The notes under the pieces are model-generated. The model was not told where the DNA came from and searched no databases. It was given only the letters and a program-made list of their open reading frames with translations. 36,361 bases of DNA from a virus. Lineage: Duplodnaviria; Heunggongvirae; Uroviricota; Caudoviricetes. Below, one piece after another: positions 1 to 26,253 of the stretch. The position numbers were made by a program, and so were the translations under genes. The stretch lies in the IMG/VR virus record IMGVR_UViG_2579778635_000006; one strand, written 5' to 3'. The stretch's first letter is position 1. The number at the start of each line of letters is the position of its first letter.

Positions 1-1056
1 TTATGACGGGGTAATGCCAACCGCTGCCGCCACTTTGTCGCCACTTGGCAGCGTTGCCAGAGGATTGAAACGGAGCGCCGTTTCCAGATGATCCGGTGCC
101 AGATGTGCGTAACGCATAGTCATTTTTATATCGTGGTGTCCGAGAATTTTTTGTAAGGCCAGAATGTTTCCACCCGACATCATGAAGTGCGCCGCAAACG
201 TATGGCGCAGAACGTGTGTGAGTTGACCGCGAGGGAGCACGATAGACGTTTTTTCCATTACGGATAAAAATTGAAAATAGCAGTCTGTGAAGAAATTGAA
301 TCCATCAAGCGCCATGATCTCTTCATAAAGCTCTTTACTGATAGGGATGCTTCTGTTTTTCTTCCCCTTCGTTCTTACAAAGGTAATTCGGTATTTAGTC
401 ACCTGTGATCGGGTAAGGTTTATTGCTTCTCGCCAGCGTGCGCCTGTGCTTAAGCATATCTTGACTACCAGTGCCAGAATTGGGTCCTGACGTTTGCAAT
501 CAGCCAGCAGTTCAACAATCTGCTCATGGGTAAGCCATGCCATCTCTTTTTCTGCGATGGTGAATTTTCGCATGTTCTCCAGTGGGTTTGGATACGACCA
601 TTCGCCCAGGCGGGATAGTTCGCTAAAAACACTACTTAGATAGCTTTGCTCCAGGTTAATGGTGACCGGGCTGGCTCCTTTCTTCCATTTCTCGCTGAAG
701 TAGATCTCACCGGTCAGGCGTTTATCTCGATAGTGGGCAAACATTTTAGAGGTGAGATTGGTTGCAAGAGGATTGCCTAGAGCGTCAACCATCAGCAGCA
801 ATTTGTCATAGACATGCTGCCCAGCAGTCAGAGATTTACCATGTAATTTGAACCATAGCTCAACCACGTCTTTCAGGGTTCGACGATCCACTGATTCGCC
901 CAGCCAGGGCTTTGATTCGGTTTCTTCCATCGTGTGACGCTCAAAAGCCAGAGCTTCGCCTTTGGTGGCGAATTGTTTACGCACACGACGCCCACTTCGT
1001 CCGGCGGGGTAACATTCGCAAAGCCATTTCCCTGTGGTGAGTTTTCGTACTGCCAT
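1..1056 (-). CDS. int: Tyrosine integrase, P2/186 Int family
   Basis: 351-aa ORF. The C-terminal catalytic region (LSTGARWREA, HVLRHTFAAHF, ILGHHDIKMTMRYAHL) fits tyrosine-recombinase signatures. It sits next to the att repeat and the cI repressor, as in P2 and 186. Confidence 0.95.
   Translation of the reverse strand: MAVRKLTTGKWLCECYPAGRSGRRVRKQFATKGEALAFERHTMEETESKPWLGESVDRRTLKDVVELWFKLHGKSLTAGQHVYDKLLLMVDALGNPLATNLTSKMFAHYRDKRLTGEIYFSEKWKKGASPVTINLEQSYLSSVFSELSRLGEWSYPNPLENMRKFTIAEKEMAWLTHEQIVELLADCKRQDPILALVVKICLSTGARWREAINLTRSQVTKYRITFVRTKGKKNRSIPISKELYEEIMALDGFNFFTDCYFQFLSVMEKTSIVLPRGQLTHVLRHTFAAHFMMSGGNILALQKILGHHDIKMTMRYAHLAPDHLETALRFNPLATLPSGDKVAAAVGITPS
22..44. repeat. attL: Putative attL core (cgctgccgccactttgtcgccac), overlapping the 3' end of int
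   Basis: Matches 33507-33529 at 21 of 23 positions, both mismatches C/T. It lies at the outer edge of the int gene. Confidence 0.6.
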
Positions 1057-1080: not shown

Positions 1081-1126
1081 TAAATTTAACTGTATATTTG
1101 ACCAGTAGTCAATGTATGGTTTTTAC

Positions 1127-3115
1127 TTAAAAAACATTCTTATCCCCGTGGAAAAAACGTGCAACGTTCAATAGCCAGTCGGGGGTTTTTATTTCATTTG
1201 AATTTGCTAGTATTTCTAAATATTTTTCGCAAAATTCATTTTTTTTTCCTGGTAATTCGAAATAATCCTCAATAGCTTTTTTTTCTGTAATGTTAAGATT
1301 CAAAGCGCCTCCCGATACTGAAGACTCCATTAACTGTGGGGTTTCCATAAAGGACAAACTAGTTTCTCCTTTAGTGTAAAGCATTTTCAGAGTTTCTACG
1401 TAGAAATCAGCATTAAGAGACTGCTCAATTTCTGTAGGTGGATAAACTCGATCATCAGTAACTTTAACAAGGCTTATATTAGATAAGTCTTTATCGAGCA
1501 AGAGTCTTCTTATTTTTATACTTGGTATTGTATCTGTAGCATCATATGGACTATATTTGTGATCTGTATCTAATAATAATAATACTTTTCCTGAGATTGT
1601 TGCTTTGCGATCCTCTAACGCCATAACGAGTAAATTATATATTTTTTTTACTGTAGGGGAGCCACCGACGGATAAAACTATTAGTTTCTCAATGTTTTCA
1701 TAATCCAAGTGAGCGGAAATATATTTTCTATCAGTTTTTCCTTCGCACAATATCCAGTTATAATTATTTCCAGATGTTATTGAATAAACAATTGATTGTG
1801 CTAAGTCGTGATTGCTTTTCATTTCTAAAACGTCAAGGTAAGAGCCATTTGACTCTTTTGCTAGTTCCTTTAATTCATCCTTGTAGTTTTCCAGATCGAG
1901 TGCTTTGATGTATGTTTGAGAGGGGGAAATATATATGGCTGTACCTGAGCCTGTAACAGGTAAAAAACCATACCAATGAGTTGTACAAATAGTCTGTATG
2001 CCTAGGTCGCTAATTTTTTTTATTTTATCAAATTGATTAAAACATGATGTGGCATGTAAGGATAATTCAGGTTCATCAACAGCAAGAATTGTTGAGTGCT
2101 GAGATTTTTGTGGATTATGTTTTAAGAAATTGGTAGCAAGATCTAGCAATGCTTTTCTTTTTTCTCCTGAGCTTAAATTTTGCACAGGGGTATCTTTATT
2201 AACATCATCAATATGATGTAATATTTTATCACTAAAATATGATTCAATTATTTTAGATATCATATGACGTTGAGTGAAACTATTTTGTCGCTGAGATGGT
2301 TTTTTAAATTGATATCGCCCCTCAAGCTTTGTAGTTAATTGTCTAATAAAATCATTTAAGTGCGAATTTATTGCTGTAATATCCTTTTTCTTAATGATTT
2401 TACTGATTTTTTGTTGGAGATTTTCACCTAATAAAGACTGTAATAAATCGCTTTCAATCCTTGAGTATTCGGATGTGGTTATTTCTGCAGGTAGGTAAAT
2501 ATAATTATAGATATCCTTAATTGTTATTAATAGCTTAGGTAGTATATTGTTAAAATGATATTTTTTATTATTCGTCGAACTATTTTCATTTGCGAGATCA
2601 TCAATTTGCAATCGATAATCATCTATAGATTCGAAAATTGACATGTAGGGGCGAGGAATATCATTTGCAGTTTCTTTTATTATCCCAAGGGGAATTAATA
2701 AATATTCATCTGAAGAATATTTGTATTCTAGTTGCTTCCTGTGTGATATAAATTTCTCAGCTATAGGACGTTGCAATGTATTAAAAACTTCACTTTCTAT
2801 TTGCCAAGTGATATCGCTTACGATTTCTAATGCTTTGTATAGGGAATTATTTATCTTTAGCTTGTTTTTATTTATTAAATAAATTGGCACAATGAATGGT
2901 TCTCGAGTATCGAAACCTTGACTGCGCGCTTCATTGTTGATATCAAGTCTATTGATATCAGTTTTATTTAGTACAATATCTAATGCTTGTAATATTGAGC
3001 TTTTCCCGACACCATTTTCACCAATGAGCCAAGAGGATTTATTGTTTAAAGTGAGAGGGATATAATGTTGATTTTTGAAATTCTTGAAATTTCGTAAAAT
3101 AACACCAATAATCAT
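1127..3115 (-). CDS. OLD-family ATP-dependent nuclease: N-terminal ABC-type ATPase fused to C-terminal TOPRIM (class-1 OLD or fused AriA-AriB/PARIS-like)
   Basis: 662-aa ORF. Walker A is GENGVGKSS near the N-terminus and Walker B-like is ILAVDEPELSLH. The C-terminal region has the TOPRIM signatures CEGKTD and LLLDTDHK. The gene is visibly AT-rich against the phage backbone and lies between cI and int. Confidence 0.8.
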   Translation of the reverse strand: MIIGVILRNFKNFKNQHYIPLTLNNKSSWLIGENGVGKSSILQALDIVLNKTDINRLDINNEARSQGFDTREPFIVPIYLINKNKLKINNSLYKALEIVSDITWQIESEVFNTLQRPIAEKFISHRKQLEYKYSSDEYLLIPLGIIKETANDIPRPYMSIFESIDDYRLQIDDLANENSSTNNKKYHFNNILPKLLITIKDIYNYIYLPAEITTSEYSRIESDLLQSLLGENLQQKISKIIKKKDITAINSHLNDFIRQLTTKLEGRYQFKKPSQRQNSFTQRHMISKIIESYFSDKILHHIDDVNKDTPVQNLSSGEKRKALLDLATNFLKHNPQKSQHSTILAVDEPELSLHATSCFNQFDKIKKISDLGIQTICTTHWYGFLPVTGSGTAIYISPSQTYIKALDLENYKDELKELAKESNGSYLDVLEMKSNHDLAQSIVYSITSGNNYNWILCEGKTDRKYISAHLDYENIEKLIVLSVGGSPTVKKIYNLLVMALEDRKATISGKVLLLLDTDHKYSPYDATDTIPSIKIRRLLLDKDLSNISLVKVTDDRVYPPTEIEQSLNADFYVETLKMLYTKGETSLSFMETPQLMESSVSGGALNLNITEKKAIEDYFELPGKKNEFCEKYLEILANSNEIKTPDWLLNVARFFHGDKNVF

Positions 3116-3135
3116 TTTTTGTCCTTTAAAATTAA

Positions 3136-3726
3136 TTATTTACAAGTCATAATTACTTTAGCGATGATATTAACATCACTGATATTGCACTCTATTTTTT
3201 TTGATTTTGACTCTAGCATTATGCGGTTATTAGGTAACCTCATTAATTCTCGAACAGAATATATACCGTCAATGGCAATCAACCATAACCCATCATCAAT
3301 CTCATCCACACCTCGTCTCACGACATAAGTTATATGCTCATGCTCAAGAGCTGAGATATCTTTTAGGTCATTTGGCAATAGTGATAAATCAAAAATTAAA
3401 TAGCCATTATCAATCAGTTTGCCATCGATAATTTTCTCTCTGGTCAGGCTTACAACATGCGATTTTGCATCCACATACATGGGGCCTTCAGCTGCGGATA
3501 GCCAACGAAGTGAAATACCTGTTTCTAACGCACATTGAATTATCCAATCAGCGGGGAATGTATCTCTCATATATCGATTAGCTAACGTGCTTTTAGAAAC
3601 ACCAAGATGTTCAGCCAAAGCCTGTCGTGTCGTAAAGCCATAAGCTTCGACTAATCGCTCAATCGCAGCCTTACCACCTTTATTGGGATTTATTTTGATC
3701 TCACTTGGGTACTTTGATGTTGACAT
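3136..3726 (-). CDS. cI: Immunity repressor, 186 CI family
   Basis: 196-aa ORF. N-terminal HTH region (AYGFTTRQALAEHLGVSKSTLANRY) and C-terminal domain resemble 186 CI (recalled from memory). It is divergent from apl/cII across the switch region. Confidence 0.9.
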   Translation of the reverse strand: MSTSKYPSEIKINPNKGGKAAIERLVEAYGFTTRQALAEHLGVSKSTLANRYMRDTFPADWIIQCALETGISLRWLSAAEGPMYVDAKSHVVSLTREKIIDGKLIDNGYLIFDLSLLPNDLKDISALEHEHITYVVRRGVDEIDDGLWLIAIDGIYSVRELMRLPNNRIMLESKSKKIECNISDVNIIAKVIMTCK

Positions 3727-3821
3727 ATCTCTTTTGCGATCCTAGTATCACTTTTGTCCCCATTTGGGTACTTGTCACGATTACTACAGGCTCACCACAA
3801 GCCAATAGGAGATGTTGCATC
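3727..3821. promoter_or_regulatory. Lysis-lysogeny switch region (pR/pL-type promoters and CI operators expected)
   Basis: Intergenic region between divergent cI and apl, by analogy with the 186 switch. Exact promoters and operators were not resolved by eye. Confidence 0.5.
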
Positions 3822-5876: not shown

Positions 5877-6730
5877 GCACCATCCTGAAATGGGCGGGAA
5901 ATAAAACCGCCATTATGTCCGAACTGAAAAAACATCTTCCTGCTGGTCCGCGACTGGTTGAACCTTTCGCGGGTTCCTGTGCAGTGATGATGGAGACGGA
6001 TTACCCCAGCTATCTTGTTGCGGATATTAATCCTGATTTAATCAACCTCTATAAAAAGGTTGCTGCTGATTGTGAGGCGTTTATATCTCGTGCCAGAGCT
6101 TTATTTGAGGAAGCAAACAGAGAGGTGGCTTATTACAACATAAGGCAGGAGTTTAATTACTCCACTGAAATTACTGATTTCATGAAAGCGGTATATTTTC
6201 TGTATCTCAATCGTCATGGTTACCGTGGGTTATGTCGTTATAACAAGAGCGAGCATTTCAACATTCCATACGGTAATTATAAAAATCCGTATTTCCCTGA
6301 AAAAGAAATTCGCGCATTTGCAGAGAAAGCCCAGCGAGCAACGTTTATCTGCGCCAGCTTTGATGAAACGCTGGCGATGCTGCAGGTGGGGGATGTGGTG
6401 TATTGCGATCCGCCTTATGACGGTACGTTTTCCGGCTATCACACTGATGGTTTCACTGAAGATGACCAGTATCACCTGGCATCTGTTCTTGAATATCGAT
6501 CATCAGAAGGTCATCCAGTCATTGTTTCTAACAGTGACACATCCCTGATCCGTTCGCTGTATCGAAATTTCACTCACCACTACATCAAGGCAAAACGCAG
6601 CATCGGCGTGTCGGCTGGCGAGAGTAAATCTGCAACAGAAATCATTGCTGTTTCCGGGGCGCGCTGCTGGGTGGGATTTGATCCTTCGTGTGGCGTGGAT
6701 AGTTCTGCTGTGTACGAGGTGCGTGTATGA
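5873..6730 (+). CDS. dam: DNA adenine methyltransferase (Dam-like, GATC-type N6-adenine MTase)
   Basis: Product begins [11 protein letters not shown] and contains the catalytic DPPY motif (VYCDPPYDG). ATG at 5873 overlaps the upstream stop. Confidence 0.9.
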
Positions 6731-9141
6731 GTCATGACGATATGAGCAACTCTAGCGGCTTTAACGAGGCCGCTGTAGCATTTTCATGGAACGGCCCGAA
6801 AAAGGCCATTAACCCTTATCTGGACCCGGCGGAAGTTGCGCTGGAGTCTGCACTTTCAAACCTGATCACTCTGTACGCTGCCGATAATGAGCAGGAACAG
6901 CTGCGCCGCGATGCACTGAGTGAGCAGGTCTGGGAGCGTTATTTCTTTAATGAATCCCGTGATCCTGTCCAGCGTGAAATGGAGCAGGATAAGCTCATTA
7001 GTCGGGCAAAGCTGGCGCATGAACAGCAGCGTTTTTACCCGGACATGGTCATTCTGGCGGACGTCAGCGCCCAGCCTTCCCACATCAGCAAGCCGCTGAT
7101 GCAACGTATCGAATATTTCAGCAGCCTGGGCAGGCCAAAGGCTTATTCTCGCTATCTGCGTGAGACGATTAAGCCATGTCTGGAACGACTGGAGCATGTA
7201 CGCGACAGTCAGCTATCCACTTCTTTTCGCTTTATGGCAAGCCATGAAGGGCTGGACGGCCTGCTGATCCTGCCTGAAATGAGTCAGGATCAGGTGAAAC
7301 GCCTGTCTACCCTTGTCGCTGCGCATATGAGCATGTGTCTTGATGCCGCTTGTGGTGATTTGTACGCCACCGATGATGTTAAGCCAGAAGAAATCCGCAA
7401 GACATGGGAAAGGGTGGCAGCGGAAACCCTACGTTTGGATGTCATCCCGCCTGCGTTTGAGCAACTCCGTCGGAAAAGAAACCGCCGTAAACCAGTGCCC
7501 TATGAACTCATTCCGGGCTCGCTGGCGCGTATGCTGTGCGCCGACTGGTGGTATCGGAAATTGTGGAAGATGCGTTGCGAATGGCGGGAAGAGCAGTTGC
7601 GTGCTGTCTGCCTGGTCAGCAAAAAAGCATCTCCCTATGTCAGCTATGAAGCTGTGATGCATAAACGTGAGCAGCGCCGTAAGTCGCTGGAGTTTTTCCG
7701 TTCTCATGAACTGGTGAACGAAGACGGAGACGCGCTGGATATGGAAGATGTGGTAAACGCCAGCTGCAGCAACCCGGCGCATCGCCGCAATGAGATGATG
7801 GCCTGTGTTAAAGGTCTGGAGCTTATCGCGGAAATGCGCGGTGACTGCGCCGTTTTCTACACCATTACCTGTCCGTCATGTTTCCATTCCACGCTAAATA
7901 ACGGCAGACCCAACCCGACCTGGAAAAACGCGACGGTAAGACAAAGCAGCGATTATCTGGTCGGTATGTTTGCTGCATTTCGTAAGGCGATGCACAAAGC
8001 CGGGTTGCGCTGGTATGGCGTGCGGGTGGCTGAGCCGCATCACGACGGCACAGTTCACTGGCACCTGTTGTGTTTCATGCGCAAAAAAGACCGCCGCGCC
8101 ATTACTGCATTGTTGCGTAAGTTTGCTATCCGTGAAGACCGCGAGGAGCTGGGCAATAACACGGGGCCGCGCTTTAAGTCTGAGCTGATTAACCCGCGCA
8201 AAGGAACGCCGACAAGCTACATAGCGAAATACATCAGTAAGAACATTGACGGGCGTGGTCTGGCTGGCGAGATCAGCAAGGAAACGGGTAAATCTCTTCG
8301 TGATAACGCTGAATACGTGAATGCCTGGGCGTCTTTGCATCGTGTTCAGCAATTCCGCTTCTTTGGTATTCCGGGGCGTCAGGCTTACCGTGAACTGCGA
8401 TTGCTGGCTGGTCAGGCGGCAAGGCAGCAGGGTGACAAAAAAGCAGGTGTGCCGGTACTGGATAACCCGCGCCTTGATGCCATTCTGGCTGCTGCTGATG
8501 CTGGTTGTTTTGCCACCTATATCATGAAGCAGGGAGGTGTACTGGTTCCCCGTAAATATCACCTCATCAGAACTGCTTATGAAATTAACGAAGAGCCGAC
8601 CGCCTATGGCGATCACGGTATTCGTATTTATGGCATCTGGTCACCCATTGCAGAGGGCAAGATCTGCACTCATGCAGTGAAGTGGAAAATGGTTCGTAAG
8701 GCCGTTGACGTTCAGGAGGCGGCAGCCGACCAGGGCGCTTGCGCCCCTTGGACTCGTGGCAATAACTGTCCCCTTGCTGAAAATTTGAACCAACAAGGGA
8801 AAGACAAATCAGCTGATGGGGACTCCAGAACGGATATTACCCGTATGAATGACAAGGAGTTGCACGATTACCTGCACAGTATGAGCAAAAAAGAGCGCCG
8901 GGAACTGGCTGCAAGGTTACGCCAGGTGAAACCGAAACGGCGTAAAGACTACAAACAGCGAATTACAGACCATCAGCGACAGCAGCTCGTCTATGAACTG
9001 AAGTCCAGGGGATTTGATGGCAGCGAGAAAGAAGTCGATTTGCTCCTTCGCGGCGGCAGTATTCCGTCAGGAGCAGGCCTGCGTATCTTCTATCGGAACC
9101 AGCGTCTGAAGGAAGATGATAAGTGGCGGAACCTGTATTAA
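6727..9141 (+). CDS. A: Rolling-circle replication initiator, P2 gpA family
   Basis: 804-aa ORF with the HUH-type motif VHWHLLCF and a tyrosine-containing region (YIAKYISK). Position before the cos-proximal region is as in P2. Confidence 0.95.
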
Positions 9142-10733: not shown

Positions 10734-12131
10734 ATGAAGATGTATGAAGTAATTGATATATCAGCGCAGGAAATTAAGGCGTTGTTAAACACTGCTGAAG
10801 ATCATTTCAATGATTTTAAAAGTAAGCAAATAGCGCCTAATAAATTACAAGAAACTTTTGTAGCATTTGCAAATGCTGATGGCGGTAATATTTATATTGG
10901 CATAGAGGATGCAGCTTCGGGGAGAGAGCGTATATCTGGTTTCAATGAGCCAGAGGAAGCGAATGCTATTATTTCGACCTTATTGGAAAATACTAATCCA
11001 GCTGTTGAGAATGTTGAGGTGGAATATTTAAGAACACCTTCCAATGGATTGATTTTACATGTGGATATACCAAAAAGCCCCAAAGTTCATTACACGGCCT
11101 CTGGCGATTGCTTTATAAGAGCTAACGCGCAAAAATTAAAAATAAAAGGTGAGCGAATTACTCAGCTTTCCTATTCTAAAGGCGCAGAACCTTATGAAAA
11201 AAAAGCAGTGGATATAGTTGAAGTAGAAGATATTCTTGAAAGTGAATATTATTCTGATTATTTACGTAGAATAGGAACGACTCAGTCACCGAGAGTTTTT
11301 TTAAAAAAACAACGACTGTTAACTAAGAAAGATGGTGAATTTGTCCCGAATGTAGGCTGTGTTTTACTATTTGATGAAGAGCCTCAAGGATGTTTAGATA
11401 CTCGATGTGCTGTAAAAGTATATCGGCTTAGAACAACTGAAGCAGAGTACAAACGTGAACAATTACAGGAAGATCCTGTAACGATTGAGGGGCCACTTGA
11501 AGTGGTTATTTTAAATACAATAGCAAAAGTAAAAGAATATGTTGATGGAGCATCATTCAAAGACGGCGAAAATCTAGTAAAACTTAGCTATCCTGCAGAA
11601 GCATTGAAGGAAATATTAGTTAATGCTGTTATTCATAGAGATTACAGCCAAAAGGATGATGTGCACGTAAAAGTTTATGACAACCGGATTGAAGTTCAAA
11701 GTCCAGGCAGATTGCCTGGATACATGACTATTAATAATTTATATGAAGAGCGGTTTTCTCGTAATCCAAATTTAGTGCGTTTGTTGCATAAACTTCCCAA
11801 TCCAGTGAACCATGATATTGGTGAGGGGCTTGATACTGCAAAAAATGAATTGCGTAAGGCCGGGTTGGTAGCCCCGGTATTTGAAGAAAGGGGCAATAAT
11901 TTTGTTGTAATAGTTAAGCATCAAACAATAGCCTCAATTGAGGATGTGATTATTAATTATTTTAAAGAAAATCCAACGGGACAGCTCACAAATAAGTTGG
12001 TTAGACAATTAAGTGGCGAAGATGACCTTCAAAAGGTTAAAAAGGCATTGCAAAAGTTAAGGGAGGAGGGCGTAATAAAACCATTAGATCCTAACGCGAA
12101 TCCTTTCAAATTTAAATATATTAAAGCTTAA
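10734..12131 (+). CDS. AlbA_2 (Schlafen-like) + HATPase_c_4 + C-terminal wHTH protein; candidate defence/exclusion cargo
   Basis: 465-aa ORF with AAGGA upstream. N-terminal AlbA_2-type signature (DFKSK...FVAFANADGGNIYIGIED), central HATPase_c_4-type signature (NAVIHRDY...DNRIEVQSPGRLPG...SRNP), then a helix-rich tail. Strongly AT-rich against the backbone. Followed by a bidirectional terminator. Confidence 0.8.
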   Translation: MKMYEVIDISAQEIKALLNTAEDHFNDFKSKQIAPNKLQETFVAFANADGGNIYIGIEDAASGRERISGFNEPEEANAIISTLLENTNPAVENVEVEYLRTPSNGLILHVDIPKSPKVHYTASGDCFIRANAQKLKIKGERITQLSYSKGAEPYEKKAVDIVEVEDILESEYYSDYLRRIGTTQSPRVFLKKQRLLTKKDGEFVPNVGCVLLFDEEPQGCLDTRCAVKVYRLRTTEAEYKREQLQEDPVTIEGPLEVVILNTIAKVKEYVDGASFKDGENLVKLSYPAEALKEILVNAVIHRDYSQKDDVHVKVYDNRIEVQSPGRLPGYMTINNLYEERFSRNPNLVRLLHKLPNPVNHDIGEGLDTAKNELRKAGLVAPVFEERGNNFVVIVKHQTIASIEDVIINYFKENPTGQLTNKLVRQLSGEDDLQKVKKALQKLREEGVIKPLDPNANPFKFKYIKA

Positions 12132-12182: not shown

Positions 12183-13208
12183 TTATAGTTTATAGTGTTC
12201 GAAAGTTATTGCTTCTTCATTGATCCAATAGTTGAGATCTTGTAACTTCTTCTGAAGTGGCATCAGTTCATTCCGAACAAATACCCGGCTGGCCTTCTCC
12301 ACATCCCCAAACCCTCCAACATTATTAGGCATAATCCCCATCATTTGCGGCGGCACGCGGTGCGCAGCCATCATGTCGTCGCGGCTGACATTTTTGATAT
12401 TCAGAAATTCATCCTTCGCCGCGACTTCTGATAACGGGATGATTTGAAGCCCGTCCTTTTTGCCGTTAGGCGAGTACATAAACAGATTGCGGAAGTTGCC
12501 TGGACCTTTGGCGCTTTTCATTGCGTTGCGGAGGTTGTTCACATCCTCCTGGTTCTGCGCGGCATCGGTCATGTACATGATGAAGCCTGCATGGCTGCCG
12601 TTGATGTAATACTTACGGCGGAACAGCGTGGCGGACTCGTTGAGCAGGGCTGACGGAATGGCAGAAAGATAGCCGGGCAGGCCGTAGATCTCCTGGTTAA
12701 TGTCCGGTTCCATCAGATGAAAAATGCTGCCTTTCGTGAACTGATACGGCTGGGTTGTCATACCGTATTGCACAAACCAGTAGGTATCCAGGTCTAACCC
12801 GCGTCGGGTGTATTTTGCCAGAGCAGGCTCAAGGGCGATAACTTCACCGAAGCGGTTCGTGCGTTTCTCCAGGTAGGAGTTACCAAATACCAGATAGTCC
12901 TGCACAAAACGTGAAAAAGCCTGCTGGCTGAGCAGCGGATGGGGGATGTAGGTACTGGTCAGAATGTTGCATTTCACCGCAATTGGTGAACTGTGATGCA
13001 CGGCGGCGCGGAAGGTGCGTGCCAGTCCGTCAAAGCTTACTGGCGGCTCATACCAGCGATCTGTCTGTACGCATTCCACATAGTCCAGTAGTTCGCGGCG
13101 GTCCAGAACAGGAACGGGATCACCGAAGCTGAATGCTTCGGCTGTAGTTTGACTTTTATGCTGGATCTGGTTCGTCGACGCAGCGCGGTTCTTCTTACTC
13201 TTTCCCAT
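12183..13208 (-). CDS. Q: Portal protein (P2 gpQ family)
   Basis: Strong similarity to P2 Q as recalled (WYEPPVS, KDEFLN, SRDD, AHRVPPQ, MGI). ATG start overlaps the stop of P by 1 nt. Confidence 0.95.
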   Translation of the reverse strand: MGKSKKNRAASTNQIQHKSQTTAEAFSFGDPVPVLDRRELLDYVECVQTDRWYEPPVSFDGLARTFRAAVHHSSPIAVKCNILTSTYIPHPLLSQQAFSRFVQDYLVFGNSYLEKRTNRFGEVIALEPALAKYTRRGLDLDTYWFVQYGMTTQPYQFTKGSIFHLMEPDINQEIYGLPGYLSAIPSALLNESATLFRRKYYINGSHAGFIMYMTDAAQNQEDVNNLRNAMKSAKGPGNFRNLFMYSPNGKKDGLQIIPLSEVAAKDEFLNIKNVSRDDMMAAHRVPPQMMGIMPNNVGGFGDVEKASRVFVRNELMPLQKKLQDLNYWINEEAITFEHYKL

Positions 13209-14974
13209 CAAAAAATCTCCACAATATTACTGGTATTGGCGGACTCGCCCTGCAGTGGTTCGTTAAACAGTGCGTGCATTGTTGCCCAGGCCAGATCGGC
13301 GTGGCTGGCTTCTTCGCTGCGGCTGGCTTCATAGGTCGGGCGGTTGCCGCTGGCGGTGGTGGCGCGACGGATTGCCATGAATGACTGCGCAATGTCGGTG
13401 TGCCCGGCGTCAAACTCCAGACGGCGGTGGCTGATAATGTCGTAGGCCTTGAGCACCAGGGCGTTTTTAACGTTGGGGTTGTAGACAAACTCCCGGACGG
13501 CAGGAAAGAATGCTTTCACGTTCTCGTAAACCCCGTGACCAACGCCGGTTGAGTCGATACCGATATAAGTCACGTTGTACTGTTCGGTCAGTTTTTTGAT
13601 GGCGTCAGCCTGAGCGCGGAAGTCCATCCCGCGCCACTGGTGACGCTCAAGAATGCGGAATTTACCGCCCGATACGGCTGGCGGTGCCACCACCACGCAT
13701 CCGGCACTGTCGCCGTTCTGAGTACCTTTTGCGGGGTCATAACCGATCCATACTTCGCGCCAGCCAAACGGGCGCAGGGCCAGTGCATGAAAGTCGGTCC
13801 AGATTTCCCAGCTGTCCACCATGCACGCCTGCAGTTCGCTGAGCGGGAACACGGACGCGAGATCGTCCACGAACTCGCACATCAGCAGGTTCTGGTATTC
13901 GTCCGGGCTGTACTCCATGCGCAGCTGGTCGAGGTCGAACAGGTTACAGCCGCCGCGCACCGCATCTTCCACGGTGACTATCTGGCGGTATTGCCCGTCT
14001 GCGCACAGCAGGCCGGGGGCCAGATTGCTGTGGGACAGGTCGATGTCCACCTTGTCAGCTTTGTTGCGTCCACGGTTGAACAGCGCACCGGACCAGAACG
14101 GATAAGCACTGTGGGTCAGGCTGGATGGCGTGGAAAAATAGGTTTGTCGCCATTTCTTGTGAATAGCCATCCCGGAAGCCACTTTGCGCAGCTCCTGGAA
14201 TTTCGGGATCCAGAAATATTCATCCAGATACAGGTTGCCGTGGTAACTCTGGGCCGTGCGGGCATTGGTTCCGAGGAAGTAAAGCGTGGCCCCATTAGGA
14301 AGCACCATCGGATCGCCTTTCAGCTCCACCTCCACTTCTTTGGCGAAGTCGATGATGTACTGCTTAAAGACGTGGGCCTGTGCCTTACTGGCGGAAAGGA
14401 AAATCTGGTTACGTCCGGTCAGCAGGGCGTCAATCAGGGCTTCACGGGCAAAATAGAAGGTCGCGCCGATCTGGCGTGACTTCAGCAGGTTGCGGATGCG
14501 GTTGGTTTTTCCGGCTTCCCACCAGTGGCGCTGGTAGTTGAACATGGAGGAATGAAAGATTTCTTCCAGCTTCTCAATCTGTTCATCGGTGAAAACATTC
14601 TTTTCCGGCTGACGGCGCGGGCCTTTGTTACGGTTGGCGACGTTAGGGTTTAAGTCGGCTTCGTTGCCGCCATTGTTAAACTTGCCGATCCGCGCGTGGC
14701 GTTCCGACTGGCGCGCCAGCAGGTCAATCTCTTTGAAATCTTTCCCTTCTTTGTGCTCCTTCATAATGAGCTGGCAGTAGCGTGCGGCGGTGGTGAGCTG
14801 CATCTGATCCAGCGGCCCATAGTCACCCCACTTGTCGCGTTTTTTCCAGCTGTGAACGGTTGCAACTTTCTCGCCCAGCATTTCAGCAATGCGGGCGACG
14901 CGGTATCCCTGAAAGTACAGCAGCATGGCCTGCCGACGGGGATCGAGATCTGCGGGTGTCAGTGTGGTGTTCAT
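13208..14974 (-). CDS. P: Terminase large (ATPase) subunit (P2 gpP family)
   Basis: 588-aa ORF upstream of and co-oriented with Q; classic P2 P-Q arrangement. Confidence 0.95.
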   Translation of the reverse strand: MNTTLTPADLDPRRQAMLLYFQGYRVARIAEMLGEKVATVHSWKKRDKWGDYGPLDQMQLTTAARYCQLIMKEHKEGKDFKEIDLLARQSERHARIGKFNNGGNEADLNPNVANRNKGPRRQPEKNVFTDEQIEKLEEIFHSSMFNYQRHWWEAGKTNRIRNLLKSRQIGATFYFAREALIDALLTGRNQIFLSASKAQAHVFKQYIIDFAKEVEVELKGDPMVLPNGATLYFLGTNARTAQSYHGNLYLDEYFWIPKFQELRKVASGMAIHKKWRQTYFSTPSSLTHSAYPFWSGALFNRGRNKADKVDIDLSHSNLAPGLLCADGQYRQIVTVEDAVRGGCNLFDLDQLRMEYSPDEYQNLLMCEFVDDLASVFPLSELQACMVDSWEIWTDFHALALRPFGWREVWIGYDPAKGTQNGDSAGCVVVAPPAVSGGKFRILERHQWRGMDFRAQADAIKKLTEQYNVTYIGIDSTGVGHGVYENVKAFFPAVREFVYNPNVKNALVLKAYDIISHRRLEFDAGHTDIAQSFMAIRRATTASGNRPTYEASRSEEASHADLAWATMHALFNEPLQGESANTSNIVEIF

Positions 14975-21927: not shown

Positions 21928-22822
21928 CCTTTCGCAGTTGCCTGCGCCGCAGATTGTCGATGTGCCGGACTTTGAGACGCTGCTTGCCGAACGCAGGGCC
22001 GAATTTGTTGCGCTTCATCCGAAAGATGAGCAGGAAGCCGTGATCCGCACGCTGGAACTGGAATCTGAACCCGTCACCAAATTGCTGCAGGAGAACGCTT
22101 ACCGTGAGTTGCTTCTGCGCCAGCGCATTAACGAAGCCGCGCAGGCTGTGATGGTGGCTTACGCGATGGGCGGCGATCTTGACCAGCTCGCTGCCAACTA
22201 CAACGTGAAACGCCTGACGGTGACGCCTGCTGATAATGACGCTGTGCCACCCGTTGCGGCTGTGATGGAAAGCGATGAAGCGTTACGCCTGCGTGTGCCC
22301 GCAGCCTTTGAAGGGCTTTCTGTTGCGGGGCCAACTGCCGCTTATGAATTTCATGCCCGAAGCGCCGACGGTCGGGTGGCGGATGCCAGTGCAACCAGTC
22401 CGGCACCTGCAGAGGTGGTACTGACTGTCCTGAGTCGTGAAGGCGACGGAACAGCAGAAAAAGACTTGCTGGATGTGGTGGAGAAAGCCCTGAACAGTGA
22501 GAACGTCCGCCCGGTGGCTGACCGTCTTACGGTTCGCAGCGCAGAAATCATTCCGTATCGCGTGGAAGCCACCATTTTTCTCTATCCGGGACCGGAAGCA
22601 GAGCCGGTAATGGCAGCGGCAAAAGCCAGTCTGCAGAAGTACATTGCCAGCCAGACGAGGCTTGGTCGGGATATTCGCCGTAGCGCCATCTTTGCTGCTC
22701 TGCATGTTGAGGGTGTTCAACGTGTGGAACTGGCTTCTCCGCTGGCGGATGTGGTCCTGAACAAAACACAGGCGGCATCATGTACGCAGTGGAGCGTAAC
22801 CAACGGAGGAGCGGATGAATAG
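21914..22822 (+). CDS. J: Baseplate protein (P2 gpJ family)
   Basis: ATG at 21914 with AGGAG upstream. N-terminus MAVIDLSQLPAPQIV resembles P2 J. Confidence 0.9.
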   Translation: MAVIDLSQLPAPQIVDVPDFETLLAERRAEFVALHPKDEQEAVIRTLELESEPVTKLLQENAYRELLLRQRINEAAQAVMVAYAMGGDLDQLAANYNVKRLTVTPADNDAVPPVAAVMESDEALRLRVPAAFEGLSVAGPTAAYEFHARSADGRVADASATSPAPAEVVLTVLSREGDGTAEKDLLDVVEKALNSENVRPVADRLTVRSAEIIPYRVEATIFLYPGPEAEPVMAAAKASLQKYIASQTRLGRDIRRSAIFAALHVEGVQRVELASPLADVVLNKTQAASCTQWSVTNGGADE

Positions 22823-23420
22823 TCTGCTGCCACCGGGTTCAACTTCACTGGAGCGCCGACTGGCGCAAACCTGTAGCGGGATTTCTGATTTGCAGGTGCC
22901 GCTGCGTGACTTGTGGAATCCGGCTACCTGTCCGGTCAGTTTCCTGCCTTATCTCGCCTGGGCGTTCTCTGTGGATCGCTGGGACGAGGGCTGGACAGAA
23001 AGCGTCAAGCGCCAGGTGGTGAAGGATGCTTTTTATATTCATCAGCATAAAGGGACCACCAGTGCCGTGCGGCGGGTGGTGGAGCCGTTCGGCTTTCTGA
23101 TCCGCATTATTGAGTGGTGGCAGACCGGAGAGGCACCGGGCACGTTTCGTCTGGATATCGGCGTGCAGGACCAGGGCATCACTGAAGATACCTATCTGGA
23201 ACTTGAGCGACTGATAAGCGATGCCAAACCATGTAGCCGTCACATGAGCGGCATGTCCATCAACCTGCAGACCAGCGGCCCGCATTGGGTGGGAGCCGCC
23301 AGCTATCTTGGCGAAGAAATCACGATCTATCCGTATATCAACGAAACAATTATTTCCGGCGGCACCGCGCATGAAGGCGGGGCGGTCCATGTTATTGACA
23401 CAATGAGAGTGAATCCATGA
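22815..23420 (+). CDS. I: Baseplate/tail-fibre attachment protein (P2 gpI family)
   Basis: 201 aa, overlapping the J stop and preceding H. Confidence 0.9.
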   Translation: MNSLLPPGSTSLERRLAQTCSGISDLQVPLRDLWNPATCPVSFLPYLAWAFSVDRWDEGWTESVKRQVVKDAFYIHQHKGTTSAVRRVVEPFGFLIRIIEWWQTGEAPGTFRLDIGVQDQGITEDTYLELERLISDAKPCSRHMSGMSINLQTSGPHWVGAASYLGEEITIYPYINETIISGGTAHEGGAVHVIDTMRVNP

Positions 23421-25840
23421 GCACAAAATTTTATACCCTGCTGACGGATATTGGCGCGGCGAAACTTGCCAGCGCCGCCGCGCTTGGTGTGCCGCTAAAA
23501 ATTACCCATATGGCGGTGGGCGATGGCGGCGGAGCATTGCCGACGCCGGACGCAAAGCAGACTGCACTGGTAAATGAGAAACGCCGGGCTGCGCTGAATA
23601 TGCTCTATATCGACCCGCAGAACAGCAGCCAGATTATTGCTGAACAGGTGATCCCTGAAAACGAGGGCGGTTGGTGGATACGTGAAGTGGGCCTGTTTGA
23701 TGAGTCAGGGGCATTGATTGCCGTGGGGAACTGCCCGGAAAGCTATAAACCGCAACTGGCTGAAGGCAGCGGGCGCACCCAGACCGTGCGCATGGTGCTG
23801 ATTACCAGCAGTACGGACAATATCACCCTGAAAATCGACCCTGCTGTAGTACTGGCAACTCGCAAGTATGTGGATGACAAAATATCAGAGCACGAACAGT
23901 CACGACGTCACCCGGACGCCTCGCTGACCGCAAAAGGTTTTACTCAGTTAAGCAGTGCGACCAACAGTGAATCCGAAATACTGGCCGCAACACCGAAGGC
24001 TGTGAAGGCTGCATATGATCTTGCAGCAGGTAAAGCATCCGCCAGTCACACACACCCGTGGAATCAGATAACAGGTGTACCTGCAGCCTCGCTGACGGTA
24101 AAAGGCACTGTGCAACTCAGCAGCGCCACTAACAGCACATCAGAAACGCAGGCCGCCACTCCAAAGGCAGTGAAGGCGGCATATGACCTTGCAGCAGGTA
24201 AGGCACCTGTCAGTCACACACACCCGTGGAATCAGATAACGGATGTGCCTGCAGCTTCACTGACGGTAAAAGGCACCGTGCAACTCAGCAGTGCCACTAA
24301 CAGCACGTCAGAAACGCAGGCTGCCACACCAAAGGCAGTGAAGGCGGCATATGACCTTGCAGCAGGTAAGGCACCTGTCAGTCACACGCACCCGTGGAGC
24401 CAGATAACGGATGTGCCTGCAGCTTCACTGACGGTAAAAGGCACCGTGCAACTCAGCAGCGCCACTAACAGCACGTCAGAAACGCAGGCTGCCACACCAA
24501 AGGCAGTGAAGGCGGCATATGACCTTGCAGCAGGTAAGGCACCTGTCAGTCACACGCACCCGTGGAGCCAGATAACGGATGTGCCTGCAGCTTCACTGAC
24601 GGTAAAAGGCACCGTGCAACTCAGCAGCGCCACTAACAGCACGTCAGAAACGCAGGCTGCCACACCAAAGGCAGTGAAGGCGGCATATGACCTTGCAGCA
24701 GGTAAGGCACCTGTCAGTCACACGCACCCGTGGAGCCAGATAACGGATGTGCCTGCAGCTTCACTGACGGTAAAAGGCACCGTGCAACTCAGCAGCGCCA
24801 CTAACAGCACGTCAGAAACGCAGGCTGCCACACCAAAGGCAGTGAAGGCGGCATATGACCTTGCAGCAGGTAAGGCACCTGTCAGTCACACGCATCCGTG
24901 GAGCCAGATAACGGATGTGCCTGCAGCTTCACTGACGGTAAAAGGTACCGTGCAACTCAGCAGCGCCACTAACAGCACGTCAGAAACGCAGGCTGCCACA
25001 CCAAAAGCTGTGAAGGCTGTATATGACCTTGCCAATGGAAAACAACCTGCCGACGCCACACTGACCGCACTGGCAGGCCTTGCCACTGCGGCAGACAAAC
25101 TTCCGTATTTTACGGGGAATGATACAGCCAGCCTGACAACCCTGACTAACGTTGGACGGAATATTCTGGATAAAGCAAGTACACAGGCGGTTATTCAATA
25201 TCTTGGTCTGAGCGATGCAAGTGGATACGTTGGACGCTGGCTGAATACCCGGGTTTTCACCTCATCAGGTACGTACACCCCGACGCCAGGAACAAAACGG
25301 ATCAGGGTCACAATAACGGGCGGCGGTGGCGGAGGGGGCGGCTGCAAGGCTACATCCAATAATGAAACGTTTTTCGGCGCTGGCGGTGGGGCCGGTGGAA
25401 CAATAATTTCAATAATGACCCCAACACAGAATAGTTATCCAGTCACTATCGGCGCAGGTGGGGCCGGTGGTGTTAGTGCGACGAACGGCACCAGTGGCGG
25501 GAATAGCGTATTCGCATCGTTAATTGCTCCTGGTGGCGCAGGTGGCGGGAAAGTGGGAGTTACAAACACAAACGGCGGTAACGGAGGTGTGCCGAGTACT
25601 GGCGATATCCGCATCACTGGTGGAAATGGAGGCGACGGTCAGTCCGGAAATATCGGCGTCAGCGGTGAAGGCGGAACATCGCACTGGGGCGGCGGTGGAC
25701 GCGCAGGCGCTGGCGGTGGTGTTAGTGGTAAGGCATATGGTTCAGGTGGCGGTGGCGCATACGATGCCGGTTATAGCGGAACCAGTATGACAGGCGGGAA
25801 AGGTGCTGCTGGGATTTGTATTATCGAGGAGTTTGCATAA
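23417..25840 (+). CDS. H: Tail fibre protein (P2 gpH family): conserved N-terminus, internal 56-aa tandem repeats, glycine-rich C-terminal domain
   Basis: N-terminal ~160 aa are P2 H-like (MSTKFYTLLTDIGAAKLASAAALG...). The middle holds about 6.6 tandem 56-aa repeats. The C-terminus is Gly-rich (GGGGGGGG, GAGGAGG, NGGNGG). Confidence 0.9.
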   Translation: MSTKFYTLLTDIGAAKLASAAALGVPLKITHMAVGDGGGALPTPDAKQTALVNEKRRAALNMLYIDPQNSSQIIAEQVIPENEGGWWIREVGLFDESGALIAVGNCPESYKPQLAEGSGRTQTVRMVLITSSTDNITLKIDPAVVLATRKYVDDKISEHEQSRRHPDASLTAKGFTQLSSATNSESEILAATPKAVKAAYDLAAGKASASHTHPWNQITGVPAASLTVKGTVQLSSATNSTSETQAATPKAVKAAYDLAAGKAPVSHTHPWNQITDVPAASLTVKGTVQLSSATNSTSETQAATPKAVKAAYDLAAGKAPVSHTHPWSQITDVPAASLTVKGTVQLSSATNSTSETQAATPKAVKAAYDLAAGKAPVSHTHPWSQITDVPAASLTVKGTVQLSSATNSTSETQAATPKAVKAAYDLAAGKAPVSHTHPWSQITDVPAASLTVKGTVQLSSATNSTSETQAATPKAVKAAYDLAAGKAPVSHTHPWSQITDVPAASLTVKGTVQLSSATNSTSETQAATPKAVKAVYDLANGKQPADATLTALAGLATAADKLPYFTGNDTASLTTLTNVGRNILDKASTQAVIQYLGLSDASGYVGRWLNTRVFTSSGTYTPTPGTKRIRVTITGGGGGGGGCKATSNNETFFGAGGGAGGTIISIMTPTQNSYPVTIGAGGAGGVSATNGTSGGNSVFASLIAPGGAGGGKVGVTNTNGGNGGVPSTGDIRITGGNGGDGQSGNIGVSGEGGTSHWGGGGRAGAGGGVSGKAYGSGGGGAYDAGYSGTSMTGGKGAAGICIIEEFA
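23913..25030 (+). repeat. In-frame tandem repeat array, 168-bp unit, about 6.6 copies, inside H
   Basis: Unit starts (ctgcagc) at 24081, 24249, 24417, 24585, 24753 and 24921, with a diverged first copy near 23913. Copies 3-6 look nucleotide-identical by eye. Confidence 0.9.
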
Positions 25841-26253
25841 TGAATGCGTCATATGCAGTTATTGAAAATGGGATGGTTGTGAATGTCATTGTCTGGGATG
25901 GCGAGGCTGAATTCACAGTGCCGGATAATCAGCAGCTCATTGATATTTCTGATATCAGTGAGCATCCAGGAATTGGCTGGGGGTATTCAGACGGGGTATT
26001 TACTGCGCCGCTCCCTCCGGAACGTTCTCATAATGAACTGGTAGCTGACGCTGAACAGAAAAAACAGTCGCTGATAGACGCAGCAATGGCCAATATCAGC
26101 GTGATTCAGTTAAAGCTGCAGGCCGGGCGCAAACTGACGCAAGAAGAAACTACCCGACTTAACGTTGTGCTGGATTATATCGAGGCTGTGACGGCAACAG
26201 ATACCAGCACCGCACCTGATATCATTTGGCCTGTTTTCCCTGCAAGCAGATAA
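25840..26253 (+). CDS. G: Tail fibre assembly chaperone (P2 gpG / Tfa family)
   Basis: ATG at 25840 overlaps the H stop (TAATG), with GAGGA upstream. It follows the tail fibre gene. Confidence 0.85.
   Translation: MNASYAVIENGMVVNVIVWDGEAEFTVPDNQQLIDISDISEHPGIGWGYSDGVFTAPLPPERSHNELVADAEQKKQSLIDAAMANISVIQLKLQAGRKLTQEETTRLNVVLDYIEAVTATDTSTAPDIIWPVFPASR

Follow-up and report, generated by a model that had tools for sequence, protein, structure and literature searches.

Several described fibre proteins can be set beside the tail-fibre gene H analysed here, which lies in a 36,361-nucleotide stretch of viral DNA (IMG/VR record IMGVR_UViG_2579778635_000006; below, the window). One is gpH of phage P2 (NP_046775.1; its chaperone is gpG), where the gene order I-H-chaperone-sheath is like that of the window and, by inspection of the translation, the N-terminal motifs are alike up to ...EHEQSRRHPD (aa 167). 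The likeness extends to what comes directly after this motif, ASLTAKGFTQLSSATNS...., and to the segment that follows the array, GKQP.DATLTALAGLATAAD..PYFTGND. P2 gpH differs in its number of Phage_fiber_2 cores, which is only 2 with the short linker GKYTAQDAT between them, and in the complete absence of HxH; its receptor-binding part, at the C-terminus, shows no relationship to the glycine-rich domain encoded in the window.

The same family of unit core builds the PF03406 arrays of lambda Stf-type fibres, Mu S and prophage side tail fibres. Such fibres have up to 12 tandem stretches, some of them built, like gene H, from a 56-aa HxH module and others from a two-unit super-repeat of ~100 aa, and the crystal structures of Mu S (5YVQ, 8JU3, 9KI1) contain one core each. 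The array of the window differs from these others in its pure 56-aa period and in its four interior copies, which are nearly identical in DNA. His-x-His also recurs along the T4 gp37 tip, the R1/R2 pyocin fibre shaft and the P2 gpV apex; these proteins are trimers in which it makes up octahedral Fe sites (PMC6116203), three chains bringing six histidines round one Fe (PMC6116203; PMC11705849). Gene H has no detectable sequence homology with these proteins, and its spacing is strictly one putative site per 56 residues. Finally, the collagen-like/coiled-coil repeats of the EPclA/B fibre proteins of E. coli prophages vary between strains by whole periods, and some of these proteins also contain a Phage_fiber_2 domain (PMC3368898). 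Their periods are short, 3 residues for the collagen triplets and 7 for the coiled-coil heptads, whereas the array of the window repeats a module of 56 residues and is a 168-bp minisatellite in its DNA. A literature search for work relating host range to the copy number of tandem repeats in tail fibres found nothing specific.

Gene H and its neighbourhood

The gene H protein is identical, by exact look-up, to WP_032286388.1 / EZJ30654.1 from E. coli 1-392-07_S4_C2 (contig JJLK01000056.1), and the element that carries it is a P2-like E. coli prophage. The genes run in the order gpI, H, Caudo_TAP chaperone and sheath (Table 1), and relatives are annotated alike, which puts H in the P2-type position. 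The earlier note had named it tail-fibre gene H, and the PF12571 domain and the comparison with P2 gpH bear that name out and make the protein one of gpH type. By homology to P2 gpH, the N-terminal domain probably attaches the fibre to the baseplate, and the glycine-rich C-terminal domain is presumed to be the receptor-binding tip; the latter weakly matches the Pam3 fibre (7YFW/7YPX) in the PDB. The array lies between this P2-type baseplate-attachment domain and the distal glycine-rich domain, and it belongs to the PF03406 (Phage_fiber_2) family, whose model matches gene H in 7 stretches with 401.5 bits (E = 3.3e-123; cut-off 22 bits). None of the sequenced phages has gene H beyond its N-terminal 464 nt at a DNA identity of at least 85%.

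Diversification of the gene by a retroelement or an invertible segment was also considered and was dropped, the evidence being weak: the chaperone and sheath genes come directly after H, and part of the window's ORFs were scanned against family libraries.

Table 1. Positions in the window of gene H, its repeat units and the genes on either side
Feature	Position	Strand	Remarks
gpI baseplate/tail protein	22815..23420	+	Tail_P2_I, E = 1.5e-54; immediately upstream of gene H and overlapping its start
Tail-fibre gene H, 807 aa	23417..25840	+	Intact ORF; Pfam: Phage_tail_fib, 7 x Phage_fiber_2, Gly_rich_2
N-terminal P2-type fibre domain, aa 1-150	23417..23866	+	PF12571 Phage_tail_fib, 218.4 bits, E = 5.5e-65
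Unit 1	23918..24085	+	Old diverged copy; dS 1.34, dN 0.127 vs unit 4
Unit 2, WNQ type	24086..24253	+	8 of 9 differences from units 4/5 synonymous
Unit 3	24254..24421	+	Marker T at unit position 39 (window 24292); unit 3 of DS26-1 has the same marker
Units 4 and 5	24422..24757	+	Each carries 39C and 138C, a unit 3/unit 6 chimera; unit 5 starts at 24590
Unit 6	24758..24925	+	Marker T at unit position 138 (window 24895); equals unit 4 of DS26-1
Unit 7	24926..25093	+	Phage_fiber_2 core only; GKQPADATLTALAGLATAA in place of the HxH linker
Six H-T-H codon triplets, 9 nt each	24047, 24215, 24383, 24551, 24719, 24887 (span 24047..24895)	+	One in each of units 1-6
Perfectly 168-bp-periodic block	24293..24894	no strand	602 bp
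Glycine-rich C-terminal domain, aa 616-804	25262..25828	+	PF21722, 49.6 bits vs cut-off 24.3
Tail-fibre assembly chaperone, 137 aa	25840..26253	+	Intact; Caudo_TAP, E = 3.5e-20

Structure and divergence of the array

Seven in-frame tandem units of 168 bp (56 codons) occupy positions 23918..25093 of gene H, each beginning in frame with ASLT... at the starts given in Table 1. Tandem Repeats Finder returns a single array at 23983..25032 with a period of 168, 6.2 copies, 96% matches, 0 indels and a score of 1876, and the periodicity is far above chance expectation. A unit is made up of a Phage_fiber_2 core of about 40 aa and a 16-aa linker with S-H-T-H-P-W; in unit 7 only the first ~38 residues are retained before the sequence passes into a conserved shaft segment that is found in P2 gpH too. 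In total this makes six full 56-aa modules and about 0.65 of one more, in agreement with the count of about 6.6 copies in the earlier note, and the consensus peptide quoted there is exact for units 3-6. The array that it placed at 23913-25030 is real, but the start at 23913 is out of frame, 5 nt before unit 1 begins.

The units differ greatly in their divergence. Pairwise nucleotide differences are 0-2 among units 3-6, 9-10 for unit 2 and >40 for units 1 and 7. Counted against units 4 and 5, which are 0 nt apart from each other, the differences number 41 for unit 1, 9 for unit 2, 1 for unit 3, 1 for unit 6 and 46 for unit 7. The synonymous divergence forms a gradient, with a dS of 1.34 between units 1 and 4, 0.218 for unit 2 and at most 0.024 for units 3-6, and dN/dS between units is about 0.04-0.1 (about 0.09 for unit 1 vs unit 4). 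Both the nucleotide differences and this gradient agree with the description first given of the array, an identical centre with diverged first and last copies, and judged by such divergence the central units are young and the terminal units old. Unit 1 is itself conserved between strains, with 0-1 nt differences in most of the relatives examined and up to 4 nt in L004.

Unit number in relatives and in the window

The corresponding gene of DS26-1, a complete genome, is identical to that of the window except that units 4 and 5 are absent. Neither the 501 nt at the N-terminal end nor the 747 nt at the C-terminal end shows any difference, and units 1, 2, 3, 6 and 7 are likewise unchanged; with 0 differences over these 2,088 nt the difference in length between the two alleles must be younger than any point substitution there. 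Units 4-5 of the window, moreover, carry 39C and 138C, which is precisely the chimera that a crossover between unit 3 and unit 6 would make. From this comparison of the two alleles we consider it probable, for our explanation taken as a whole, that the window allele is the common 5-unit allele of the DS26-1 type with two recombinant interior units added.

Old ends and a young middle would also be expected from concerted evolution, that is, if there had been no recent expansion and all seven units were old, with the interior homogenised by continuing gene conversion. That history is very improbable in our judgement, as the flanks and units 1, 2, 3, 6 and 7 are base-identical to those of the 5-unit allele and the 7-unit state is unique, while 4 and 5 units are widespread among the relatives listed.

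Among the 60 complete E. coli genomes listed, 35 have 4 units, 25 have 5 and none has more than 5; 6-unit alleles were found in draft assemblies, and a 6-unit ABAB allele has a B-to-A junction which a shorter allele would lack. Alleles that share one N-terminal haplotype to within 0-2 nt have 4 units in 23CRST022 and L021, 5 units in DS26-1, ETEC4091, L015, L020 and L023, and 7 units in the window, and 8 of 87 flank protein haplotypes were seen with more than one length. Such whole-unit length differences on the same flank haplotype identify the array as a coding minisatellite (VNTR). Hybrid units, which are the marks of crossover, comprise units 4-5 of the window and unit 2 of L021 (breakpoint 54-69), of L023 (75-135) and of L024. 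The recombination or slippage to which the expansion had originally been attributed is supported by these different unit numbers on one flank haplotype and by the hybrid units that mark unequal recombination. The comparison with related prophages that had been proposed at the same time finds the tandem units present there too, in varying number (4 and 5, and 6 in drafts).

The polymorphism in unit number that is visible here is a polymorphism between strains.

Seven units is the count as assembled, and it is provisional: the contig is a draft from 2014, and no other allele with 7 units was seen. A literature search on how strain 1-392-07_S4_C2 (JJLK01) had been sequenced turned up nothing of use. 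Among the proteins and genomes listed the seven-unit allele occurs on that one contig only, and there is no protein of at least 807 aa among the best 120 cluster representatives. Unequal crossover would produce exactly these two additional units, and so would an assembler looping round a repeat. Inside the 602-bp block (Table 1) the number of units is not fixable by non-spanning reads or read pairs. Units 4-5 hold no sequence of <100 nt that is absent from the 5-unit allele, so that a repeat-loop assembly error would yield the identical sequence, and because no more than 99 nt separate the two markers (unit positions 39 and 138), the k-mer graph of the 5-unit allele also allows a 7-unit path. 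The true allele might in that case be of the 5-unit DS26-1 type, or have some other number, the loop having been traversed three times and not once.

Such an artefact is a possibility of some weight, although we think it somewhat unlikely. The array routinely defeats short-read assembly: all 14 of the 14 listed 'partial' proteins in the 90% cluster of the window protein start or end within the array, some of them sit on contigs of 289-360 bp, and two related scaffolds have gaps of 99-100 N inside it. In the other assemblies examined, however, failures at the array are contig breaks or N gaps and not extra copies; unit gains and losses on the same haplotype are real in complete genomes, and other fibres hold longer arrays of the same module. 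The array had been flagged at the outset as an assembly-collapse hazard, and it does break assemblies, but the failures that can be seen are breaks and N gaps, and the question for the window is one of over-count rather than collapse.

The HxH module and the proposed mechanism

The six H-T-H motifs of units 1-6 are the only HxH motifs of the gene H protein. Their position in the unit is conserved among diverse relatives: H44 is present in 160 of 217 and H46 in 153 of 172 aligned stretches from 150 diverse proteins, as counted from a phmmer alignment in which HxH was not required for inclusion. PDB searches with gene H returned only Mu protein S (core, residues 113-150) and the Pam3 fibre (glycine-rich domain). 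Neither phmmer nor the profile search found a solved HxH-fibre homologue of the module in the PDB, and the linker had no PDB match by sequence or profile search; no solved structure contains the HxH-linker module. For aa 280-628 (window 24254..25300), an AlphaFold2 monomer model had a mean pLDDT of 43.5 and a pTM of 0.36 and was too poor for use.

We conclude with reasonable confidence that the locus is an in-frame 168-bp minisatellite in a gpH-type fibre gene, in which whole units are gained and lost by recombination, and which encodes a modular shaft. The near-identical interior units may misalign at replication or during homologous recombination (unequal crossover / slipped-strand exchange), and this would add or delete whole units with the reading frame always kept; the terminal units would remain as old copies because they are too diverged to take part in the exchange. 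The fibre is probably a trimer, with each unit forming one shaft module between the attachment domain and the glycine-rich tip and adding a predicted 3-4.5 nm to its length (a rough volume-based guess). Each HxH may contribute to one putative buried six-histidine metal site; the number of such sites would then be six in the window allele, four with 5 units and three with 4 units.

Variation of this kind might also be expected of an adaptive, fast-switching (contingency-type) length locus, in line with the host-range or receptor-reach switch suggested in the earlier note; phage subpopulations with different fibre reach would arise from it and be selected by O-antigen or capsule depth. The unit changes recur on identical haplotypes, all of them are in frame, the interior identity of ~99-100% favours misalignment, and fibres are able to adjust their length through repeat structure (PMC6116203). 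We nevertheless regard such a locus as unlikely; the complete genomes are dominated by two states, 4 and 5 units, which slow drift fits equally well. Furthermore, tandem repeats of such size and identity in E. coli are expected to be unstable without selection, and this too weighs against it. It seems to us slightly less likely again that the near-identity of the interior DNA is maintained so that fibre length and the number of putative metal sites vary at a useful rate within populations of lysogens and phages, as a heritable 'reach' dial by which a single P2-like phage lineage would track hosts differing in O-antigen or capsule depth, with a 7-unit long-fibre allele that is real and was recently selected. 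Unit number is most likely a nearly neutral or mildly tuned length polymorphism with no dedicated switch.

There is nothing out of the ordinary in this array, a minisatellite within a known fibre-repeat family; the kind of repeat was already known, and existing knowledge of phage fibres is unchanged. Gene H is a reproducible trap for short-read E. coli assemblies, where it leaves broken contigs, N gaps and 'partial' proteins in the databases, and unit counts taken from draft assemblies of the gene are not to be trusted. At the same time the strains offer shafts of 4, 5 and 6 modules, and perhaps of 7, in backgrounds that hardly differ. With this clean natural series the effect of fibre length and HxH site number on adsorption could be measured, and it could guide the engineering of P2-type fibres or tailocins.

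Gene H and its prophage setting

The window is a P2-like prophage beside a ybjL-like gene (Asp-Al_Ex antiporter family), and the equivalent prophage of E. coli DS26-1 adjoins ybjL. Its tail-fibre gene H has gpI upstream and a Caudo_TAP chaperone gene downstream, and its protein is already in NCBI as an exact entry, WP_032286388.1 / EZJ30654.1 ("phage tail fiber repeat family protein"), from E. coli 1-392-07_S4_C2 (draft assembly GCA_000627255.1, contig JJLK01000056.1). P2 gpH has in common with it the N-terminal motifs up to ...EHEQSRRHPD and the post-array segment, but possesses only two cores, with a short linker between them and no HxH.

Features of the window, with one chaperone copy from a related locus
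Feature	Position	Strand	Remarks
AAA_15 ATPase	1127..3115 (within 1119..3806)	-	662 aa
Schlafen AlbA_2 + HATPase_c_4 protein	10734..12131	+	465 aa
Gene H	23417..25840	+	intact ORF, 807 aa
P2-type fibre N-terminal domain PF12571	gene H aa 1-150
Phage_fiber_2 PF03406	middle of gene H		seven stretches, 401.5 bits
Unit 1	start 23918	+	in frame; ASLT...
Unit 2	start 24086	+	in frame
Unit 3	start 24254	+	in frame; T at unit position 39
Unit 4	start 24422	+	in frame
Unit 5	start 24590	+	in frame
Unit 6	start 24758	+	in frame; T at unit position 138
Unit 7	start 24926	+	in frame
Glycine-rich C-terminal domain PF21722	gene H aa 616-804
Chaperone	25840..26253	+	intact ORF, 137 aa; Caudo_TAP E = 3.5e-20
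Chaperone copy in L001	L001 5148..5489		apparent annotation inconsistency

The chaperone ORF differs by 1 nt from the DS26-1 copy. For DS26-1, 23CRST022, ETEC4091, NCTC9008 and F437, RefSeq lists the chaperone as an "incomplete" pseudogene, and in the source record of the window it is called at 126 aa only; these calls look like annotation inconsistency, not decay. Exactly the same 137-aa protein lies downstream of fibres of 639, 663, 695, 771 and 807 aa in the related loci L015-L024, and its sequence is present in 436 blocks of the collection, as listed, so conservation is much stronger in the chaperone than in the fibre shaft.

At the end of gene H, the ~640 nt that encode the glycine-rich domain (25202..25840; gene nt 1786-2424) have 91-97% identity to tail-fibre genes of E. 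coli plasmids of 80-93 kb, whose annotations read "tail fiber protein", "phage tail fiber protein" or "pyocin knob domain-containing protein". At 87-93% they also match chromosomal genes annotated "glycine-rich domain-containing protein", one of them with StfP annotated alongside, and the tip appears, from these matches, to be exchanged as a module among different fibre scaffolds. Where this domain begins, eight consecutive glycine codons (GGCGGCGGTGGCGGAGGGGGCGGC; 25319..25342) form a second low-complexity stretch in gene H.

Two candidate cargo genes lie elsewhere in the window. The AAA_15 ATPase, flanked by the integrase (1..1056) and a CI-type repressor (3136..3726), has AriA (2.3e-23), Old (1.5e-17) and GajA-like models as its best defence-library matches and is probably an OLD-family anti-phage cargo gene; the segment 1119..3806 has no BLAST match within the DS26-1 prophage region. 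The 465-aa protein gave weak PADLOC matches to pAgo-associated models. Its gene lies between an 804-aa ORF (6727..9141), alignable with the replication endonuclease gene of DS26-1, and, on the right, an ORF (12183..13211) corresponding to a DS26-1 gene with the annotation phage portal protein, a position that corresponds to the P2 tin/old cargo site.

The repeat array and its alleles

The earlier note had described a tandem 168-bp array in gene H with identical-looking central copies and diverged first and last ones, and both points hold. Tandem Repeats Finder reports a single array (23983..25032; period 168, 6.2 copies, 96% matches, 0 indels, score 1876), and an ORF scan found no ORF of at least 80 aa overlapping it other than gene H. 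Units 4 and 5 have zero nt differences between them; counted against this pair, the differences are 1 nt in each of units 3 and 6, 9 in unit 2, 41 in unit 1 and 46 in unit 7. Perfect 168-bp periodicity extends over 602 bp (24293..24894). The start proposed earlier, 23913, is out of frame, 5 nt upstream of the first unit boundary, and unit 7 retains its first ~38 residues before running on into the next shaft segment. Relative to units 4/5, dS is 1.34 for unit 1, 0.218 for unit 2 and at most 0.024 for units 3 and 6, with dN/dS of ~0.04-0.1; judged by this divergence, the ends of the array are old and constrained and its middle young.

Unit number, which the earlier note had proposed comparing in relatives, does vary there. 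Among the 120 best cluster representatives, 50 have 4 units (639 aa), 3 have 6 (751 aa), those with 5 measure 695 aa (65), 694 aa (1) or 658 aa (1), and none is 807 aa or longer. In 5,426 complete E. coli genomes there are 73 full-length matches, and the best 60 of these comprise 35 with 4 units (spans 1920 in 31, 1922 in 1 and 2316 in 3, these last carrying another C-terminal insert), 25 with 5 (spans 2088 in 24 and 2085 in 1) and none with 6 or 7. That 4- and 5-unit states dominate the complete genomes is in keeping with mild constraint plus drift. More than one length occurs in 8 of 87 flank protein haplotypes, one of which has 4, 5 and 6 units. The 6-unit allele of the related loci L004 and L005 reads u1-A-B-A-B-u6, and since no shorter allele could supply its B-to-A junction, at least 6 units are real there.

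The N-terminal DNA haplotype of the window (0-2 nt differences over 501 nt) itself occurs with 4 units in 23CRST022 (complete genome) and locus L021, with 5 in DS26-1 and ETEC4091 (both complete genomes) and loci L015, L020 and L023, and with 7 in the window. Hybrid forms of unit 2 are present in L021 (breakpoint at unit positions 54-69), in L023 (75-135) and also in L024, and they mark independent unequal exchanges. Taken together, the aligned alleles show an in-frame minisatellite that gains and loses whole units on one haplotype, with hybrid units of varied breakpoints and with the terminal units left out of exchange. Going by what is generally known of the instability of tandem repeats in E. 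coli, the exchange would be unequal homologous recombination or replication slippage among the interior units, which are 99-100% identical.

The seven-unit count

DS26-1 gene H equals that of the window in the N-terminal 501 nt, units 1, 2, 3, 6 and 7 and the C-terminal 747 nt, and differs solely by the absence of units 4 and 5. This identity is local, because elsewhere the two prophages agree at 97.4% on the left side of the array and at 99.5% on the right. Over its length the window is a mosaic relative to the DS26-1 prophage (L006): identity is 90-95% in the early region, 97.4% between 12259 and the array, and 99.5% beyond the array as far as 36361, a pattern which suggests recombination patches among P2-like prophages.

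Units 4 and 5 carry C at both unit positions 39 and 138, which is what two rounds of crossover would give if unit 6 supplied 39C and unit 3 supplied 138C. An assembler traversing the cycle from 138C through the junction to 39C three times, not once, would yield sequence identical to that of the double crossover, and we hold such an artefact possible, if rather doubtful. The two markers are separated by 99 nt in the unit, so k-mers shorter than 100 nt cannot separate the 7- from the 5-unit allele, and resolving the count needs data spanning ~600 bp; the sequencing method of GCA_000627255.1 was not found in the literature. The array is an assembly hazard, with contig breaks and N gaps inside it in related assemblies: all 14 partial proteins listed in the cluster of the window protein begin or stop within the array, three coming from contigs only 289-360 bp long, and gaps of 99-100 N interrupt it in two related scaffolds, L016 (gene positions 1121-1220), which has the N-terminal haplotype of the window, and L017 (778-878).

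The unit as a predicted shaft module

The 56-aa unit consists of a Phage_fiber_2 core of ~40 aa and a 16-aa linker (...GKAPVSHTHPWSQITDVPA). H-T-H occurs six times, once per unit from unit 1 to unit 6, and the gene H protein has no other HxH motif. A search with one unit gave 1464 matches among 1.84 billion representative proteins (E <= 0.001), some with as many as 12 stretches in tandem; in P0136 and P0137, two such cases, modules with HxH and modules with a short linker alternate. An unbiased alignment took in 625 matched stretches of the 150 best proteins, the majority of them core only; where the linker aligns, H44 is present in 160 of 217 stretches and H46 in 153 of 172. In the PDB the core was found in Mu fibre protein S alone (5YVQ, 8JU3, 9KI1; residues 113-150), and none of the PDB matches includes the linker; the AlphaFold monomer model is unusable (pLDDT 43.5).

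HxH motifs build buried six-histidine Fe sites in the trimeric T4 gp37, the R1/R2 pyocin fibres and the P2 spike (PMC6116203; also PMC11705849), and fibre length is adjustable through repeat structure (PMC6116203). From the motif, one metal site per unit per trimer may be predicted for the gene H protein.

The PF03406 repeat family, its tandem arrangement and HxH sites in fibres are all known already, as are repeat domains of variable length in E. coli prophage fibres (PMC3368898), a feature that gene H shares. What is added here is an allelic series on a single haplotype with mapped recombinant units, and a 7-unit count indistinguishable from loop error. By a rough volume estimate (3 x 56 residues, fibre width 2.5-3 nm) a unit would measure 3-4.5 nm, and each one would supply a shaft module, with an HxH site per trimer, to the stretch from the baseplate end to the glycine-rich tip.
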